The notes under the pieces are model-generated. The model did no database searches, had not been told where the DNA came from, and saw only the letters and a list, made by a program, of their open reading frames with translations. 64,000 nt of DNA from Saprospiraceae bacterium (GTDB lineage: Bacteria > Bacteroidota > Bacteroidia > Chitinophagales > Saprospiraceae), in the NCBI GenBank assembly GCA_036479115.1, contig JAZGFD010000085.1, positions 11,218 to 75,217 on the forward strand, given 5' to 3'. Position 1 is the stretch's first letter; every line of letters starts with the position of its first letter. Positions 13,446-59,870 of the stretch are shown in pieces. The translations under genes and the position numbers were made by a program.

Positions 13446-13463
13446 ATATAAGTTTAAGTTATT

Positions 13464-13623
13464 GTAACTACTCAGGTGGAGCCAATTTTGGTTTAAAACA
13501 AATTCCTTTTCGACCACATTTCAGCTTTTTTTTCGGCAGCACTCTGAGATGCTTCAAAAAATGATCTCTATCCGAAAAAAAATAACAATTTTTAATCTCA
13601 ATAGCGCCCACCTGAGCGGTTAC
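13464..13623 (+). mobile_element. Family-1 MITE-like element (subtype 1a)
   Basis: Runs from GTAACTACTCAGGTGGAGCCAATTTTGG to GCGCCCACCTGAGCGGTTAC, with terminal inverted repeats. It sits 19 bp upstream of the adaptor start codon. Confidence 0.8.
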
Positions 13624-15176: not shown

Positions 15177-15182
15177 TAAACA

Positions 15183-15340
15183 GTAACTACTCAAGTGGAG
15201 TCAATTTTGGATAAAAAAATATTTTTTCTACTATTTTTCACCTATTTTTTTTACAATAGCTCTGCTATGCCATAAAAATGAGCTTTATCTGGCAAAATAA
15301 TAACAAATTTTTATCGCAAAAGCGATCACCTGTGTATTAC
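15183..15340 (+). mobile_element. Family-1 MITE-like element (subtype 1a) with 8-bp duplication AATAAACA
   Basis: Termini GTAACTACTCAAGTGGAG and GATCACCTGTGTATTAC. AATAAACA occurs at 15175-82 and again at 15342-49. Confidence 0.8.
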
Positions 15341-15366
15341 CAATAAACATTTGGAATTAAATTTGT

Positions 15367-15607
15367 GGTAAATATTCAGATAGTTTCAAATTAGGCTAAG
15401 AAAAAATGCTCTTATATCACTATACTATGTCAAAGTATGTCTGAAATTGAATATGTGGCACCATAATCGAGATTCACTAACACATATAATGAGTTGGTAA
15501 TAGCGCTGCTATGAATACAAAAAAAAATATGTCAAGCAATAAGATAGCAATTTTTTACCTTCCTGTTTGGCAGACAGATTTCAAAAGCACACCACCGAAG
15601 TAGTTAC
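15367..15607 (+). mobile_element. Family-1 MITE-like element (subtype 1b) carrying one 55-bp module
   Basis: Degenerate left end GTAAATATTCAGATAGTTTCAAATTAGG. Right end GCACACCACCGAAGTAGTTAC. The interior is collinear with the copies at 42983 and 46859. Confidence 0.7.
15444..15498 (+). repeat. 55-bp module (single copy) inside a family-1b element
   Basis: AAATTGAATATGTGGCACCATAATCGAGATTCACTAACACATATAATGAGTTGGT matches the consensus AAATCGAAGATGTGGCGACAYAATCGAGATTCACTAACCAATAA. Confidence 0.7.
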
Positions 15608-18538: not shown

Positions 18539-18701
18539 GGGAATTACTGAGGAACAGTCAATTTTAGATGAAAAAAGTTCTTTTTCTACCATATTTCAGC
18601 TATTTTTTTCGGCACAACTTTACTATGCCTCAAAAAATGAACATTACCAGAAAAAAAAATAACAAATTTTTATCTCAAAGGCGCCCATCTGGAGTTGTTA
18701 C
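18539..18701 (+). mobile_element. Family-1 MITE-like element (subtype 1a), flanked by TAATTATT / TTATTATT
   Basis: Termini GGGAATTACTGAGGAACAGTCAATTTTAG and GCGCCCATCTGGAGTTGTTAC. The flanking 8-mers at 18531-38 and 18702-09 match 7/8. Confidence 0.75.
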
Positions 18702-18768
18702 TTATTATTTAGTAAGTATCAGTAATTTATGAGTTGTCTCTAAATTATTGATGTATATTGAGTCCACT

Positions 18769-18943
18769 CGAAAAACTCGCAAAATCAACAAAGTTGACTT
18801 CGACAAGATCTGCATAAAACTTTTGGCGAACTTTACATTTTTCTCAAACCGCTGATACTAAGGGATCACCGAATCTCAAAAAATGCAAATTTGATCCGAA
18901 GCGATTCTTTTTCTGAAAAATGTTAGTTTCCAGCGTAGATTTA
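18769..18943 (+). mobile_element. Family-2 MITE-like element with 4-bp duplication ATAT
   Basis: Termini TGAGTCCACTCGAAAA and degenerate CCAGCGTAGATTTA. Conserved core TTTTGGCGAACTTTACATTTTTCTCAAACCGCTGATACT..ATCACCGAATCTCAAAAAATGCAAATT. ATAT occurs at 18765-68 and 18944-47. Confidence 0.75.
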
Positions 18944-18990
18944 ATATTCAATTATTAGATATTTTTATTAAATGTTAAAAATTCTTTATC

Positions 18991-20250: not shown

Positions 20251-20293
20251 TATCGCTCATTCCCCTCAAAGGCTATTAAATTGTGTCTGAACG

Positions 20294-20453
20294 GTAACTA
20301 CTCAGGTGGAGCCAATTTTGGACACTAAAAGTTCTTTTTCTACTATTGGAGCTTTTTTTCGCGGTTGCTCTGCTATACCTCAAAAAATGAGCTTTATCTG
20401 GTAAAAAATATCACTTTTTTTACATCAAAAGTGCCCCCCTCCTGTGTAGTTAG
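20294..20453 (+). mobile_element. Family-1 MITE-like element (subtype 1a) nested in the left end of a family-2 element
   Basis: Termini GTAACTACTCAGGTGGAGCCAATTTTGG and GTGCCCCCCTCCTGTGTAGTTAG. It is flanked by TGTCTGAACG (20284-93) and TGTCTGATCG (20454-63). Confidence 0.75.
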
Positions 20454-20612
20454 TGTCTGATCGAAAACTCATCAAAATTAGAAATAGTTTTTTTGGCGAT
20501 ATTTAATTTTTTTTCAACTCGCTGATACTCCGGCATCACAGAATATTAAAAAATGATAATATCATCTAAAATAATTAATTTTTGAAAATTATCTGTTTTC
20601 AGAGCGGACTCA
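20454..20612 (+). mobile_element. Family-2 MITE-like element (divergent copy)
   Basis: Degenerate left end TGTCTGATCGAAAACTC. Core TTTTTGGCGATATTTAATTTTTTTTCAACTCGCTGATACTCCGGCATCAC. Right end CAGAGCGGACTCA. Confidence 0.65.
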
Positions 20613-32897: not shown

Positions 32898-33064
32898 GTA
32901 ATAGTAAGTGGGATAACATTTTTAGAAATTTTCTTACCTATCATTTTTCGTAAATACTTAGGTGAGGCCCATTTTGGGCAAAAAATTATTTTTCTATCAT
33001 ATTTCATCTACATTTTTCGCTTTGGCTCTGCGATATCTCAAAAGGGACCCACTTGAGTAGTTAC
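32898..33064 (+). repeat. Composite of one partial and one internally deleted family-1 element
   Basis: GTAATAGTAAGTGGGATAACATTTTTAG (partial left arm), then GTAAATACTTAGGTGAGGCCCATTTTGGG...GGGACCCACTTGAGTAGTTAC. The central ~45 bp is missing. Confidence 0.6.
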
Positions 33065-33146
33065 TCTTTTTTATTAGCAAATTGCTATTGACTTTTTTTT
33101 CACTAAAAATGCAATTAGTTTTGTAGCTCATTTAAATTAAAATGAT

Positions 33147-34371: not shown

Positions 34372-34578
34372 TGAGTCCACTCCGAAAATTTACAAAATCA
34401 AAAAGTTAACTTTTACAAGCTCTGTATAAATACTTCGACAATCTCTGCAGAAAGCTTTTGGAGAACTTTACATTTTTCTCAATTCGCTGATACTCCGTCA
34501 TCACCGAATCTCCAAAAATGCAAATTCCACCCAAAACGATTCTTTTTCTGAAAAATGTTAGATCCCTGAGTAGACTCA
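34372..34578 (+). mobile_element. Family-2 MITE-like element (with ~23-bp internal duplication)
   Basis: Termini TGAGTCCACTCCGAAAA and CTGAGTAGACTCA. The core is identical in layout to the copies at 18769 and 38554. Confidence 0.75.
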
Positions 34579-34759: not shown

Positions 34760-34858
34760 ATTGAAACTCTGCATAACTGCAATACATGTCACTTTATAAC
34801 ACAAAAATACACGTGCTTTGTAGCCAAAGATGATTACAACGCTATTGTTACAAATATT

Positions 34859-35018
34859 GTAACTACTGGGCTGTAGCCAATTTTGGATAAAAAAGTATTT
34901 TTTTACGATGATTTCAGCTATTTTTTTTGCCTTAACTTTGCTATGCTTTTAAAAATGAGCTTTATCTGTTAAAAAAATAACAAATTTTTATATCAAAGGC
35001 GCCCACCTGGGTAGTTAC
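34859..35018 (+). mobile_element. Family-1 MITE-like element (subtype 1a) with perfect 8-bp duplication CAAATATT
   Basis: Termini GTAACTACTGGGCTGTAGCCAATTTTGG and GCGCCCACCTGGGTAGTTAC. CAAATATT occurs at 34851-58 and 35019-26. Confidence 0.85.
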
Positions 35019-37663: not shown

Positions 37664-37785
37664 CGTTCTTTTGGCGACATTTTTTATTCAACTCGCTGAA
37701 ACTCAGGCATCACTAAATATCAAAAAACTAAATTCTCAGCCAAAATATTTTATTTCATAAACTTTGACAGTTTCCGTTCAGACAC
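37664..37785 (+). repeat. 5'-truncated family-2 element
   Basis: It begins in the core, TTCTTTTGGCGACATTTTTTATTCAACTCGCTGAAACTCAGGCATCAC, and ends with a degenerate right terminus, GTTTCCGTTCAGACAC. It abuts the Crp gene stop codon. Confidence 0.6.
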
Positions 37786-38463: not shown

Positions 38464-38553
38464 AAAAATGACGCTTTTACCAAACCGTATCTATGTGCGG
38501 TATTCTTTAACAATGAGCGGATTGAAAACAGCAAGAATAGAAGATGCCAAACT

Positions 38554-38738
38554 TGAGTTCACTCCAAAAGGTAACAAAACCAAAAAAAGTTACTTCGTCA
38601 AGCTCTGCATAAAGCTTTTGGCGCACTTAATATTTTTCTCAACTCGCTGATAATCAGGTATCACCGAGTCTCCAAAAATGCAAATTTCATCCGAAACAAT
38701 TCTTTTGCAGAAAAATGTTAGTTTTCTGAGTAGACTCA
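38554..38738 (+). mobile_element. Family-2 MITE-like element with perfect 4-bp duplication AACT
   Basis: Termini TGAGTTCACTCCAAAAGG and TTTTCTGAGTAGACTCA. AACT occurs at 38550-53 and 38739-42. Confidence 0.8.
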
Positions 38739-38748
38739 AACTTGATCT

Positions 38749-42912: not shown

Positions 42913-42982
42913 AGTTAAGATTTCTATAAAGACGTAAATATGTGTCATTCTACCTATTCAAAGGTAGATTTTAACATTAGTT

Positions 42983-43200
42983 GTAACTACTCAGGTGATA
43001 TCAAATTTGGTTAAAAAAACTCTTTTATCACTATACTTCGGCAATTTATGTCTCTAATTCGAAGATGTGGTGATATAAGTCGATATTCACTAACAAATAA
43101 AATACATTATTTATAGCGCTGCTATTAATACAAAAATAGCCTGTGTTTAGCAATAAAATAGCACCTTTTTATCTCAAAAGCACACCACTTGAATAGTTGA
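42983..43200 (+). mobile_element. Family-1 MITE-like element (subtype 1b, one 55-bp module) with perfect 8-bp duplication CATTAGTT
   Basis: Termini GTAACTACTCAGGTGATATCAAATTTGG and GCACACCACTTGAATAGTTGA. CATTAGTT occurs at 42975-82 and 43201-08. Confidence 0.8.
43066..43120 (+). repeat. 55-bp module (single, divergent copy)
   Basis: AATTCGAAGATGTGGTGATATAAGTCGATATTCACTAACAAATAAAATACATTA. Confidence 0.6.
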
Positions 43201-43345
43201 CATTAGTTAAATTCTTAGAAAATGTGGCTTTTTTGAAAATACTTATCCTTTCTCATCGCTTTTGAGTTTTAAGCTATTTAAACAATATTTTTTTTTAATC
43301 AAGAGAAAATTTTAGTTCTTAGGAGTGTTATGGTTTGAAAAATCC

Positions 43346-43636
43346 GTAACCACTCAGGTGGATCATTTTGAGGCCTGACTGTCAATGAGGTTGGCACAAA
43401 ATTGTTATTTTTTACCAGATAAAATTCATTTGAGATGCAATAACAGCGCTATTCCTATCCTGTTTTATTGATTTGTGAATCTCGATTATGTCGCCATATC
43501 TTCGATTTACTAACTCATTTTATTGGTTAGTGAATCTCGATTATGTCGCCATATCTTCGATTTACATCGAGAAAAGCTGAAATACGGTAGAAAAAGAACT
43601 TTTTTTAGCTAAAACTGGCTCCTTCTGAGCAACAAC
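43346..43636 (-). mobile_element. Family-1 MITE-like element (subtype 1b, two tandem 55-bp modules), inverted relative to 42983-43200
   Basis: Termini GTAACCACTCAGGTGGATCATTTTGAGG and GGCTCCTTCTGAGCAACAAC. The flanking 8-mers AAAAATCC (43338-45) and AAAATTCC (43637-44) match 7/8. Confidence 0.8.
43454..43563 (-). repeat. Two tandem 55-bp modules
   Basis: GTGAATCTCGATTATGTCGCCATATCTTCGATTTA occurs at 43475 and again at 43530, an exact 55-bp period. The two copies are identical over this core. Confidence 0.85.
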
Positions 43637-46858: not shown

Positions 46859-47021
46859 GGGACTACTTCAGGTGGTATCAATTCTGGATAAAAAAAGCTC
46901 TTTTAGCACTATACTGCTGCTATTTGTATTTTAATACTGCTGCTATTAAGACATAAATGAGCCTTGTCTAGCAATAAAATAGCAATTTTTCATCTCAAAA
47001 GCACACCACCTGAGTAATTAC
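46859..47021 (+). mobile_element. Family-1 MITE-like element (subtype 1b, no 55-bp module) with perfect 8-bp duplication AAATAAAA
   Basis: Termini GGGACTACTTCAGGTGGTATCAATTCTGG and GCACACCACCTGAGTAATTAC. AAATAAAA occurs at 46851-58 and 47022-29. It fills the whole spacer between two gene ends. Confidence 0.8.
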
Positions 47022-47029
47022 AAATAAAA

Positions 47030-47680
47030 CTATGTTTCCATATTACTAAACAACCCATAAAGATTAGCATCCATCTGTTCGATAATTTTGGCTAAATCTT
47101 CTCTACTGGCTTTAAAATCTAAATCATCTACGGTGATGATTAATTTTGGCCCTTCTTTATAATTGTTGATCCAATTTTCATACCTCTCATTCAGTTTTTT
47201 CAAATAATCCAAACTCATATTGCCTTCATATTCTCTGCCTCTATTTTGGATATGAGCCACTAGAGTAGAGATGTTCGCTTTGAGATATATAAGTAAATCT
47301 GGCGGTGATACTTGAGAAGACATTGTTTTAAAAAGAGAGATGTAGTTGTTAAAATCCCTTTTATCCATCAGTCCCATTTCATATAAGTTAGGAGCAAAAA
47401 TATAGGCATCTTCATATATAGTCCTGTCTTGTACTACCGTGTTATCACCATTGTGGATTTCAAGTAATTGTTTGTATCTACTATTTAAAAAATAGATCTG
47501 AAGATTAAATGACCATCTCTTCATATCGTGATAAAAGTCATTTAGATAAGGGTTAGTTCTGGTCTCTTCGTACATCACATCCCATCCGTAATGTTTGGAT
47601 ACCAGAGTGGAAAGTGTCGTTTTTCCAACACCAATATTTCCAGTGATTGCCACATGTTTTATACCCGAGGCTTTGATCAT
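47030..47680 (-). CDS. Deoxynucleoside kinase
   Basis: P-loop ITGNIGVGKTT, DRTIYED, and an arginine-rich lid region. The start is taken at MIKASGIKH (47680). Confidence 0.85.
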   Translation of the reverse strand: MIKASGIKHVAITGNIGVGKTTLSTLVSKHYGWDVMYEETRTNPYLNDFYHDMKRWSFNLQIYFLNSRYKQLLEIHNGDNTVVQDRTIYEDAYIFAPNLYEMGLMDKRDFNNYISLFKTMSSQVSPPDLLIYLKANISTLVAHIQNRGREYEGNMSLDYLKKLNERYENWINNYKEGPKLIITVDDLDFKASREDLAKIIEQMDANLYGLFSNMET

Positions 47681-48873: not shown

Positions 48874-49207
48874 GGTAAAACGTAAGTATAACCAAGAAGA
48901 AATCTTAATATTATTGATGAATTTCCGTTCAGCCACTAAATAGTCGAACTTGAATTCAGAAAAAAAAACGTTTATCCACAATAAATCATAGTTTTTACAC
49001 TTTTTCAGCATCTCCTTTTTCATCAAGAATTTCTCCTTTTAGGGAAGCAGGATTCTCAATAGATGGAGTGTAGAATTGACCTATTTGATGTTGAATATTT
49101 AGGCTCTTTTAAATTCAATTCTTTTCATTCAATTGAAATCTTAAATGTTATATTAAAACCTCAGCCTCCCTATTTGATTAAGAGAAAACATTTTCCACAT
49201 TTTCCAC

Positions 49208-50543: not shown

Positions 50544-50874
50544 TGAGTCCTACTCTGGAAACCTACATTATTCATAAAAAGAGTTGTTTTGGATGAAATT
50601 TGCATTTTTGGAGATTGGGTGATGCCTGAGTATCAGCGAGTTGAACAAATCGAAGATGTGGGGACACAATCGAGATTCACTAACCAATAAGGTAATTTAG
50701 TAAATCGAAGATGTGGCGACACAATCGAGATTCACTAACCAATAAGATAAGTTAGTAAATTGAAGATGCGGCGACGCAATCGAGATTCATCAATGCATTG
50801 CAATGAGTTGATAAAAATATAAAGTTCGCCAAAAGATTTTTTTTTGGAATTTGTAAGTTTTCGGAATAGACACA
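50544..50874 (-). mobile_element. Family-2 MITE-like element (reverse orientation) expanded by three tandem 55-bp modules
   Basis: Left terminus TGAGTCCTACTCTGGAAACC. Core in reverse complement: AATTTGCATTTTTGGAGATTGGGTGATGCCTGAGTATCAGCGAGTTGA. Three modules follow, then AAAGTTCGCCAAAAG...CGGAATAGACACA. The flanking tetramers AGCA and AGTA match 3/4. Confidence 0.75.
50647..50811 (+). repeat. Three tandem 55-bp modules
   Basis: AAATCGAAGATG starts at 50647 and 50702, and AAATTGAAGATG at 50757, an exact 55-bp period. Copies 1 and 2 are nearly identical. Copy 3 diverges in its 3' half. Confidence 0.85.
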
Positions 50875-51063: not shown

Positions 51064-51248
51064 TTACCATTCCTTAGGTGGAGCCAATTTTGAGTAAAAA
51101 AGTTCTTTCACTACTATATTTCAATTATTTTTTTTTATCATAGTTCTGCTATGTCTCAAAAAATGAGCTTTTTTTGACAAATAACTATCATTATTTTTAC
51201 CTGCTTGATTGTCAGGCAAACCTCAAAAGCACCCATCTGAGTGGTTTT
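51064..51248 (+). mobile_element. Family-1 MITE-like element with degenerate termini and a small internal hairpin insertion
   Basis: TACCATTCCTTAGGTGGAGCCAATTTTGAG...CTCAAAAAATGAGC...CCTGCTTGATTGTCAGGCAAACCTCAAAAGCACCCATCTGAGTGGTTTT. It creates a spurious 21-codon N-terminal extension on the next ORF. Confidence 0.65.
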
Positions 51249-52139: not shown

Positions 52140-52440
52140 TTTTTAGAGCTCTGTCAAGGATAAGTTGAGTGGCACATTTTGGCATTTTTCGAGTCTGCAC
52201 TTCGATAAAAATATTTGCAATAGCTTTGCTACAGAGCGTTTAGGTGCATTTTAAATTGTCGCTTTTCTTACTCATTCCCATGTGTAAGAGAACCTCGATT
52301 GTGTTGCCACATCTTCGCTTTGTCACAATTTTTGTTGACAAAAATTTCGCCAAAGCTAGCTGTATCTCAATATTTAGCTAACGTATTGTTACCTCTCTGA
52401 GGAAATTAACGTCAATCTGAAATGCACCCGATCGTTTTTA
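52140..52440. repeat. Mosaic of degenerate repeat fragments including one reverse-oriented 55-bp module core
   Basis: GAACCTCGATTGTGTTGCCACATCTTCGCTTT (about 52290-52321) is the module core in reverse complement. Family-2-like fragments are present (TTGAGTGGCAC, TTTTTCGAGTCTGCAC, TTTCGCCAAAG). There is a 9-bp inverted pair GGTGCATTT at 52243-51 and 52420-28. Confidence 0.4.
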
Positions 52441-59659: not shown

Positions 59660-59672
59660 AATAATATATTAT

Positions 59673-59834
59673 TGAGCCCACTCCGGAAACACACAAAATT
59701 AAAAAAGTTTCTTTTGGCGATCTTTATATTTTTTTCAATTAGCTGATACTCAGGCATCACCGAATCTCAATAAATGTAAATCACATCCAAAACAACTCAT
59801 TTTGTGAAAAATGTCTGTTACCGGAGTGGACTCA
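59673..59834 (+). mobile_element. Family-2 MITE-like element with perfect 4-bp duplication TTAT and the best-preserved termini
   Basis: Termini TGAGCCCACTCCGGAAAC and TTACCGGAGTGGACTCA, matching 16 of 18 nt as inverted repeats (positions 1-4 and 6-15 form uninterrupted perfect runs). TTAT occurs at 59669-72 and 59835-38. Confidence 0.85.
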
Positions 59835-59870
59835 TTATTGAAAAATAATATGCTGATGCAAGGAGAAAAA

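Follow-up and report, generated by a model that had tools for sequence, protein, structure and literature searches.

A family of short palindromic intergenic repeats as probable MITEs of a divergent IS1182-like insertion sequence clade in Bacteroidota

The repeat at positions 38550–38742 of the 64-kb stretch of DNA analysed here (the window) belongs to a family of short interspersed elements, family 2, that is best explained (probability of about 0.9) as a MITE, the non-autonomous partner of a divergent clade of IS1182-like insertion sequences (IS). According to this explanation, the element is non-coding, almost fully palindromic DNA that would be unable to move by itself, and its ends (TGAGTCCACTCCGAAAAC..., ~18–24 nt) would be recognised by the DDE transposase of an IS1182-like/IS5-related family of IS of 1.8–1.9 kb. 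This enzyme would cut the two strands of AT-rich targets (often ANNT) with a 4-bp stagger, and a 4-bp direct repeat would be left once the cuts are repaired. From the shared sequence features we infer that a transposase of the partner family moves this MITE, while the copies in the window are probably now immobile fossils, given their pairwise identity of 75%, their decayed termini, and the lack of a transposase gene in the 64 kb.

Searches of the window with two nhmmer profiles, the first built from the five full copies proposed in an earlier, sequence-only reading of this DNA and the second from 22 copies, returned the same seven matches, establishing that the repeat family is real. All seven copies are located between ORFs, and the adjoining genes are ordinary housekeeping genes. 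The copies and their flanking duplications are:

18759..18943, plus strand: family-2 copy of the long subfamily with the 22-nt left-arm insertion (nhmmer E 6e−39), flanked by a 4-bp duplication, ATAT, at 18755–18758 and 18944–18947
20452..20612, plus strand: family-2 copy, short form (nhmmer E 1.5e−33)
34372..34578, plus strand: family-2 copy, at 207 bp the longest (nhmmer E 1.3e−39)
37665..37776, plus strand: family-2 copy, 5'-truncated and degenerate, covering profile positions 36–151 (nhmmer E 7.9e−18)
38550..38553, no strand: left copy of the AACT target-site duplication, read from the sequence
38554..38738, plus strand: family-2 copy (185 bp, long subfamily) bounded by the termini TGAGTTCACTCC...GAGTAGACTCA
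38739..38742, no strand: right copy of the AACT target-site duplication, read from the sequence
50544..50874, minus strand: family-2 copy with a split nhmmer match, its core interrupted by a 55-nt tandem repeat
59673..59834, plus strand: best preserved family-2 copy, of the canonical 162 bp (nhmmer E 5e−49), flanked by a 4-bp duplication, TTAT, at 59669–59672 and 59835–59838

The element measures 162 bp; a local variant, lengthened by an insertion in its left arm, measures 185–207 bp. Alignment showed that a 22-nt left-arm insertion is common to three window copies, which indicates that this variant was amplified within this lineage; the copy at 34372..34578 belongs to the same long subfamily and carries a further 22-nt insertion. 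Pairwise identity among the window copies averages 75% (range 68–83%), so the copies are old rather than recent, contrary to the suggestion of very recent spread in the sequence-only reading. Across the wider set, 27 of 28 family-2 copies are intergenic. The only recurrent short ORF (MPEYQ..., minus strand) was rejected as a gene, as it contains a stop codon in one window copy and its frame is shifted by indels of 1, 5, and 22 nt; the element is therefore non-coding.

Individual copies differ in their state of preservation. The sequence at 38550–38742 reads AACT, TGAGTTCACTCC...GAGTAGACTCA, AACT, and the termini of the copy at 59673..59834 agree at 16 of 18 positions, both as originally described. 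The same holds for the flanking repeats TTAT, ATAT, and AGCA/AGTA, except that the left ATAT lies at 18755–18758, rather than at 18765–18768; correspondingly, terminus matching and alignment placed the start of the first copy at 18759, 10 nt away from the proposed 18769. The right terminus of this copy is decayed (GCGTAGATTTA). The copy at 20452..20612 has a degenerate left terminus, a right terminus (20595–20612) with 2 mismatches, and no unambiguous duplication, with AGTT recurring at a 1-nt offset, and the 4-mers flanking 34372..34578 are now unmatched (ACAT/GTAT). The truncated copy at 37665..37776 begins directly after the stop codon of a cNMP-binding gene (gene end 37663). The copy at 50544..50874, whose flanking 4-mers match at 3 of 4 positions (AGCA/AGTA), is indeed in reverse orientation; rather than being expanded, it is otherwise normal, its sequence being broken up by 2.6 units of a 55-nt tandem repeat (50647–50789, TRF) from another, unrelated repeat family. 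The fragments proposed near 48930–48960 and 52140–52230 gave no nhmmer match at E ≤ 10, even when those 421 nt were searched alone.

The window contains other repeats besides family 2. Family 1 is a second palindromic repeat and, as had been recognised, a separate element with termini of its own (GTAACTACTCAGGTGG...CCACCTGAGTAGTTAC) that often occupies the same spacers as family 2. Its copies are:

13460–13623, family-1 copy
15179–15341, family-1 copy
18539–18700, family-1 copy
20290–20442, family-1 copy
32946–33075, family-1 copy
34855–35018, family-1 copy
42979–43211, family-1 copy
46859–47032, family-1 copy
51088–51184, family-1 copy

These copies often lie within a few hundred bases of family-2 copies, with that at 20290–20442 only 10 bp from 20452..20612. 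The 55-nt repeat unit (…GATGTGGCGACACAATCGAGATTCAC…) forms short tandem arrays at 50647–50789, 43452–43561, 52265–52319, and 15429–15483, the first of which is nested in the family-2 copy at 50544–50874.

The terminus of family 2 is well defined. The 18-nt sequence TGAGTCCACTCCGAAAAC/GTTTTCGGAGTGGACTCA produced 7 matches in the window at ≤3 mismatches versus 0.01 expected from shuffled sequence. Outside the window, inverted termini were recovered in every genome, with terminal inverted repeats of 18–24 nt that were perfect or near perfect. A scan with the core, using one genome per species, found full-length copies in Roseivirgaceae, Cyclobacteriaceae, Saprospiraceae, and other Bacteroidia MAGs, and the family-2 interior was found in at least six lineages; a scan with the terminus returned 114 loci, nearly all of them in Bacteroidota. 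Duplications were counted with element boundaries fixed by rule at TGAG...CTCA. A perfect 4-bp flanking repeat was present in 39 of 75 terminus-bounded elements from dozens of genomes, with a 3/4 match in 17 more, versus 1.8% perfect matches in a control that paired the left flank of one copy with the right flank of another. At repeat lengths of k = 2, 3, 5, and 6, merely 6, 4, 1, and 1 of the 75 elements matched, respectively. The 4-bp matches hence persist as more copies are included, and the earlier description of a non-autonomous MITE with TGAGTCCACTCC... inverted termini and 4-bp duplications is supported by the duplication counts, the recovered termini, and the partner IS described below.

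The exact 18-nt terminus was also seen outside Bacteroidota, namely in MAGs of Acidobacteriota (L015, L027, L080, L091, and L119), Treponema (L058), Cloacimonadota (L064), Neomarinimicrobiota (L095), and Peribacteria (L123), which could be due to horizontal transfer or to binning contamination. At one locus (L105:2243–2813), three MITEs with these termini (144, 201, and 202 bp) are arranged head to tail, each flanked by ATTT; this array could be the outcome of repeated insertion into a duplicated target or of tandem duplication. A literature search for the terminal sequence returned only matches to unrelated eukaryotic primers, and a plasmid collection contained no DNA match to the family-2 MITE.

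The search for an autonomous IS, as proposed in the sequence-only reading, was successful: the IS that was found agrees with the MITE in its ends and in the length of its duplication. In one Saprospiraceae chromosome, three pairs of termini are spaced 1,874 bp apart, and each of these units is filled by a single ORF of 589 aa with Pfam matches to DUF772 (2e−10) and DDE_Tnp_1 (3e−4). The ends of the 1,874-bp IS read TTAA, TGAGTCCACTCCGAAAAC...ATCGGAGTGGACTCA, TTAA. More generally, the partner family comprises IS of 1.76–1.99 kb that encode one DDE transposase of 550–600 aa and have the same termini as the MITE; the IS and the MITE also share the motif GAAAA(A)TG, which is subterminal at the right end. 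We identified 267 relatives of the transposase at E < 1e−10, mostly on contigs of 1.8–2.0 kb; members whose transposases are only 36–51% identical retain both the termini and the GAAAA(A)TG motif. Perfect 4-bp duplications, mostly ANNT, flank 55 of 71 full-length IS copies (77%). The clade is concentrated in Saprospiraceae, and in one Saprospiraceae MAG (CAJQNM01) the IS (L196) and a family-2 MITE (L008) occur together, agreeing at 17 of 18 terminal nucleotides. In the sampled IS copies, similarity to the MITE is confined to the terminal 20–35 nt, and a derivation of the MITE core from the IS interior was accordingly rejected for these copies.

No transposase of this family was detected in the 64-kb window by tblastn or by Pfam annotation of its ORFs. 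Lone termini were considered as possible sites of a parent IS and rejected as such, the ten large ORFs beside unpaired termini all being ordinary cellular genes. In the plasmid collection, the sole relatives of the transposase were haloarchaeal proteins at 22–25% identity, and a profile search of the PDB with the transposase alignment found no relative.

Several of the IS loci have features of their own. The Saprospiraceae chromosome OZ252053.1 (7 Mb) carries ~50 near-identical copies of the 1,874-bp IS (L139–L188), two of which have reciprocal flanks (ATAT...GTTT at L142 and GTTT...ATAT at L148), as expected after an inversion via recombination between two IS copies. A longer variant of ~3.1 kb (L128:112–3209) has two extra ORFs of 62 and 309 aa, neither with a Pfam match, situated between the left end and the transposase gene. 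At L129, another IS of this family comes immediately after a ~3.1-kb variant.

Among curated models, the transposase was matched best by that of the IS1182 family (NF033551), with the alignment extending over positions 27–486 of 488. Eleven of 12 members matched (best E 6.6e−32), with scores of 96–111 bits that fall far below the cut-off of 270, so that the assignment to IS1182 is approximate. The IS5 models were likewise under their cut-offs (NF033578, 45–55 bits versus 275; NF033581, 37–53 bits versus 140), and the ISNCY model scored lower than the IS1182 model. One public source labels a clade member as an 'IS5 family transposase'. Judged by its sequence, the partner is best placed as a divergent, IS5-related clade of the IS1182-like type that makes a regular 4-bp duplication. 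This agrees with the earlier expectation of a transposase different from that of family 1 and of the IS5, IS1380, or IS701 kind, as the DUF772 and DDE_Tnp_1 enzyme of the partner falls into the IS5-related IS1182-like group.

We then considered the interior of the element, scoring conservation on subsets that avoid selection bias. The termini were the best conserved part (0.93–0.94) in copies selected via the core. Copies chosen by their termini showed conservation of 0.875 in the core and 0.83 in the arms, and the window copies 0.885 and 0.835–0.862, respectively. Mean pairwise identity of core versus arms was 0.80 versus 0.74 among the five full window copies (p = 0.10) and 0.795 versus 0.727 among eight outside copies chosen by termini (p = 0.04). 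The core is thus better conserved than the arms, as had been noticed, but only marginally so, not to the much greater degree that had been described. The 69 short elements with these termini fell into 20 interior clusters, the family-2 core being found in one cluster of 22 elements and unrelated interiors in the other 47, which indicates that mobility depends on the termini and that the core marks one subfamily. The simplest view of the core is that all copies inherited it as the interior of a single founder, and that it does not serve as a functional module.

Some family-2 copies outside the window have unusual interiors. In two Roseivirgaceae MAGs, a GC-rich hairpin of 21–22 nt (CCTGyCTGCCGrCAwAGGCAGG) lies inside the MITE core (L004:~480–501 and L006:~655–675) and may be a tiny nested repeat of its own. 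In the second of these MAGs, a 6.2-kb unit (L006:569–6737) has the left 100 nt and right 50 nt of family 2 at its ends and a perfect ATGT/ATGT flanking repeat. Its interior lacks a transposase and encodes PorP/SprF-OmpA, a 905-aa CHU_C/FG-GAP T9SS protein, TonB_C, and an ECF sigma factor; the unit either represents a single MITE copy with cargo DNA in it or was joined from two copies, by recombination or in the assembly.

The host appears to be a member of the Bacteroidota near Saprospiraceae, the clade richest in the partner IS. A T9SS sorting domain is present in one protein encoded in the window, and the window's RecN and adenosine deaminase have marine relatives at 72–84% identity, one of them labelled Saprospiraceae, versus ~45% for named Bacteroidota; a scan of GTDB genomes with the adenosine deaminase found no close relative. 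Six loci (111 kb) from the 72–84% identical relatives were reached via RecN and adenosine deaminase. Gene order is rearranged in these loci, and they contain no family-2 copy. They also yielded no orthologous empty site: intergenic homology stops before the insertion points, in one case 54 nt upstream of gene 20833.

A role in transcription initiation or termination was rejected on the basis of a null sigma-70 scan, terminator hairpins outside the element, and random orientation outside the window. The sigma-70 promoter scan gave no signal above shuffled sequence, with the caveat that a sigma-70 model is ill-suited to Bacteroidota. Around the copy at 38554–38738, each of the two convergent genes is followed by a terminator-like hairpin with a T tail, at 38484–38501 (plus strand) and 38834–38817 (minus strand), and the copy sits between both hairpins, in the untranscribed gap.

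Three other explanations for the repeat family were weighed against the MITE. According to the first, which we regard as quite unlikely, the repeat would act primarily in regulation or as a structured RNA, for example as a protein-binding site, a small RNA, or a hairpin for RNase III or for stability, its core being under selection and its copies domesticated by the host. In its favour, the consensus folds far better on the minus strand than on the plus strand (−78.5 versus −56.4 kcal/mol), the palindrome has six wobble pairs that are all G:U when read on the minus strand, as opposed to zero on the plus strand (p ~0.03), at least one compensatory change is seen in 15 of the 50 pairs predicted, and conservation is slightly higher in the centre than in the arms. 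Nonetheless, the covariation term of the consensus fold is merely −0.79 kcal/mol, the excess conservation of the core is marginal (p 0.04–0.10), and the 6-to-0 G:U asymmetry may merely reflect the history of the founder copy. Rfam 15 gave no match at gathering thresholds in the whole window, nor at E ≤ 1 for the copy at 59673–59834. Six of the seven window copies are co-directional with the upstream gene, but orientation is random outside the window (8 same, 11 opposite). The core is absent from 47 of 69 elements with the same ends, both convergent genes at 38554 have terminator-like hairpins of their own outside the element, and the lack of any copy in 111 kb of the host's close relatives implies that the element is dispensable. 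The marginal conservation, unrelated interiors, random outside orientation, weak covariation, and null Rfam result also tell against the earlier proposal of selection on the core as a protein-binding site or small RNA.

Alternatively, each copy could be the in-place remnant of a full-length IS that lost its transposase gene by internal deletion and was never mobile as a short element. Such remnants would have the termini and duplications of full-length IS, as is the case here, and decayed copies are common in the window. This origin is very unlikely: independent deletions would give differing breakpoints and leave bits of the transposase gene, whereas all copies have one ~120-nt interior and its junctions in common, that interior is absent from every sampled IS and recurs in at least six lineages, and a shared 22-nt insertion variant occurs three times in the window. 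It is scarcely credible that the repeat is a REP/BIME-like or IS200/IS605-derived palindromic element (PATE) moved via a hairpin by an HUH single-strand transposase, even though the element is a long imperfect palindrome and its strand asymmetry could suit a single-strand intermediate. Insertion of HUH elements creates no target duplication, and these elements have no terminal inverted repeats, whereas a regular 4-bp duplication and terminal repeats of 18–24 nt are the strongest features here; moreover, the ends are identical to those of an IS with a DDE transposase, and no Y1/HUH gene was seen adjoining any copy.

The MITE explanation itself leaves some observations to one side: the interior is absent from the sampled IS, and the 6:0 G:U asymmetry is unaccounted for by pure 'selfish DNA'. 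There is a small chance that the central palindrome was exapted as a strand-specific RNA or single-strand DNA hairpin, which might act as a signal for processing or stability, as antisense RNA, or as a one-strand structure that the transposase needs. Such a hairpin would explain why the G:U wobbles lie on one strand, why several of them are conserved across bacterial families, and why the centre is slightly better conserved; if this were true, the family-2 subfamily would be the vehicle of a functional module that has spread horizontally among Bacteroidota.

For annotation, the preferred MITE reading means that the seven stretches should be recorded as mobile-element relics, and not as regulatory RNAs or unexplained conserved intergenic DNA. 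On a broader scale, it ties MITEs that are widespread in Bacteroidota, with one terminus and at least 20 types of interior, to a largely unnamed, divergent IS1182-like clade whose duplications are regularly 4 bp (ANNT) and whose activity is high in some Saprospiraceae, with ~50 near-identical copies in one chromosome. These results can be used in IS and MITE catalogues, help in understanding the poor assembly of such MAGs, and provide a contrast with the duplication-free members of the IS1272 type. Family 2 is a genuine but ordinary MITE, and no concept is changed by it.

Compared with known systems, the partner IS resembles the IS1182 family (NF033551; includes IS1272) in its single ORF, the combination of an N-terminal DUF772 with a DDE_Tnp_1-type catalytic domain, and its terminal inverted repeats, and its length of 1.76–1.99 kb is included in the range of that family. 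It shares the DUF772 and DDE_Tnp_1 architecture and the 4-bp target duplication with the IS5 group of the IS5 family, for which a 4-bp duplication is typical; unlike the typical IS5 group, the clade has larger transposases (550–600 aa) and larger elements (~1.8 kb). The IS1182 family has been described as heterogeneous, and IS1272 replaces target stem-loops and leaves no duplication (PMC5678879), in contrast to the regular 4-bp duplication made by the present clade in 77% of copies.

Family 2 itself is like other bacterial MITEs in being shorter than 300 bp, non-coding, multi-copy, and intergenic, in its capacity to fold as a whole into a long hairpin, and in having terminal repeats and a duplication length that match those of the parental IS. 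Correia, ERIC, and RUP elements are bacterial MITEs derived from DDE insertion sequences. MITECca01 of Cardinium is an IS982-derived MITE (PMC9769881), and a P. gingivalis MITE contains a minisatellite (PMC4596501), much as the window copy at 50544..50874 carries a nested one. Unlike those MITEs, family 2 has a putative parent of the IS1182-like type, as opposed to IS982, IS5 proper, or IS630-like elements, and its interior is not recognisably derived from the sampled parents. Finally, these termini enclose at least 20 mutually unrelated interiors in Bacteroidota and so delimit a MITE superfamily, as opposed to a single lineage-specific element.
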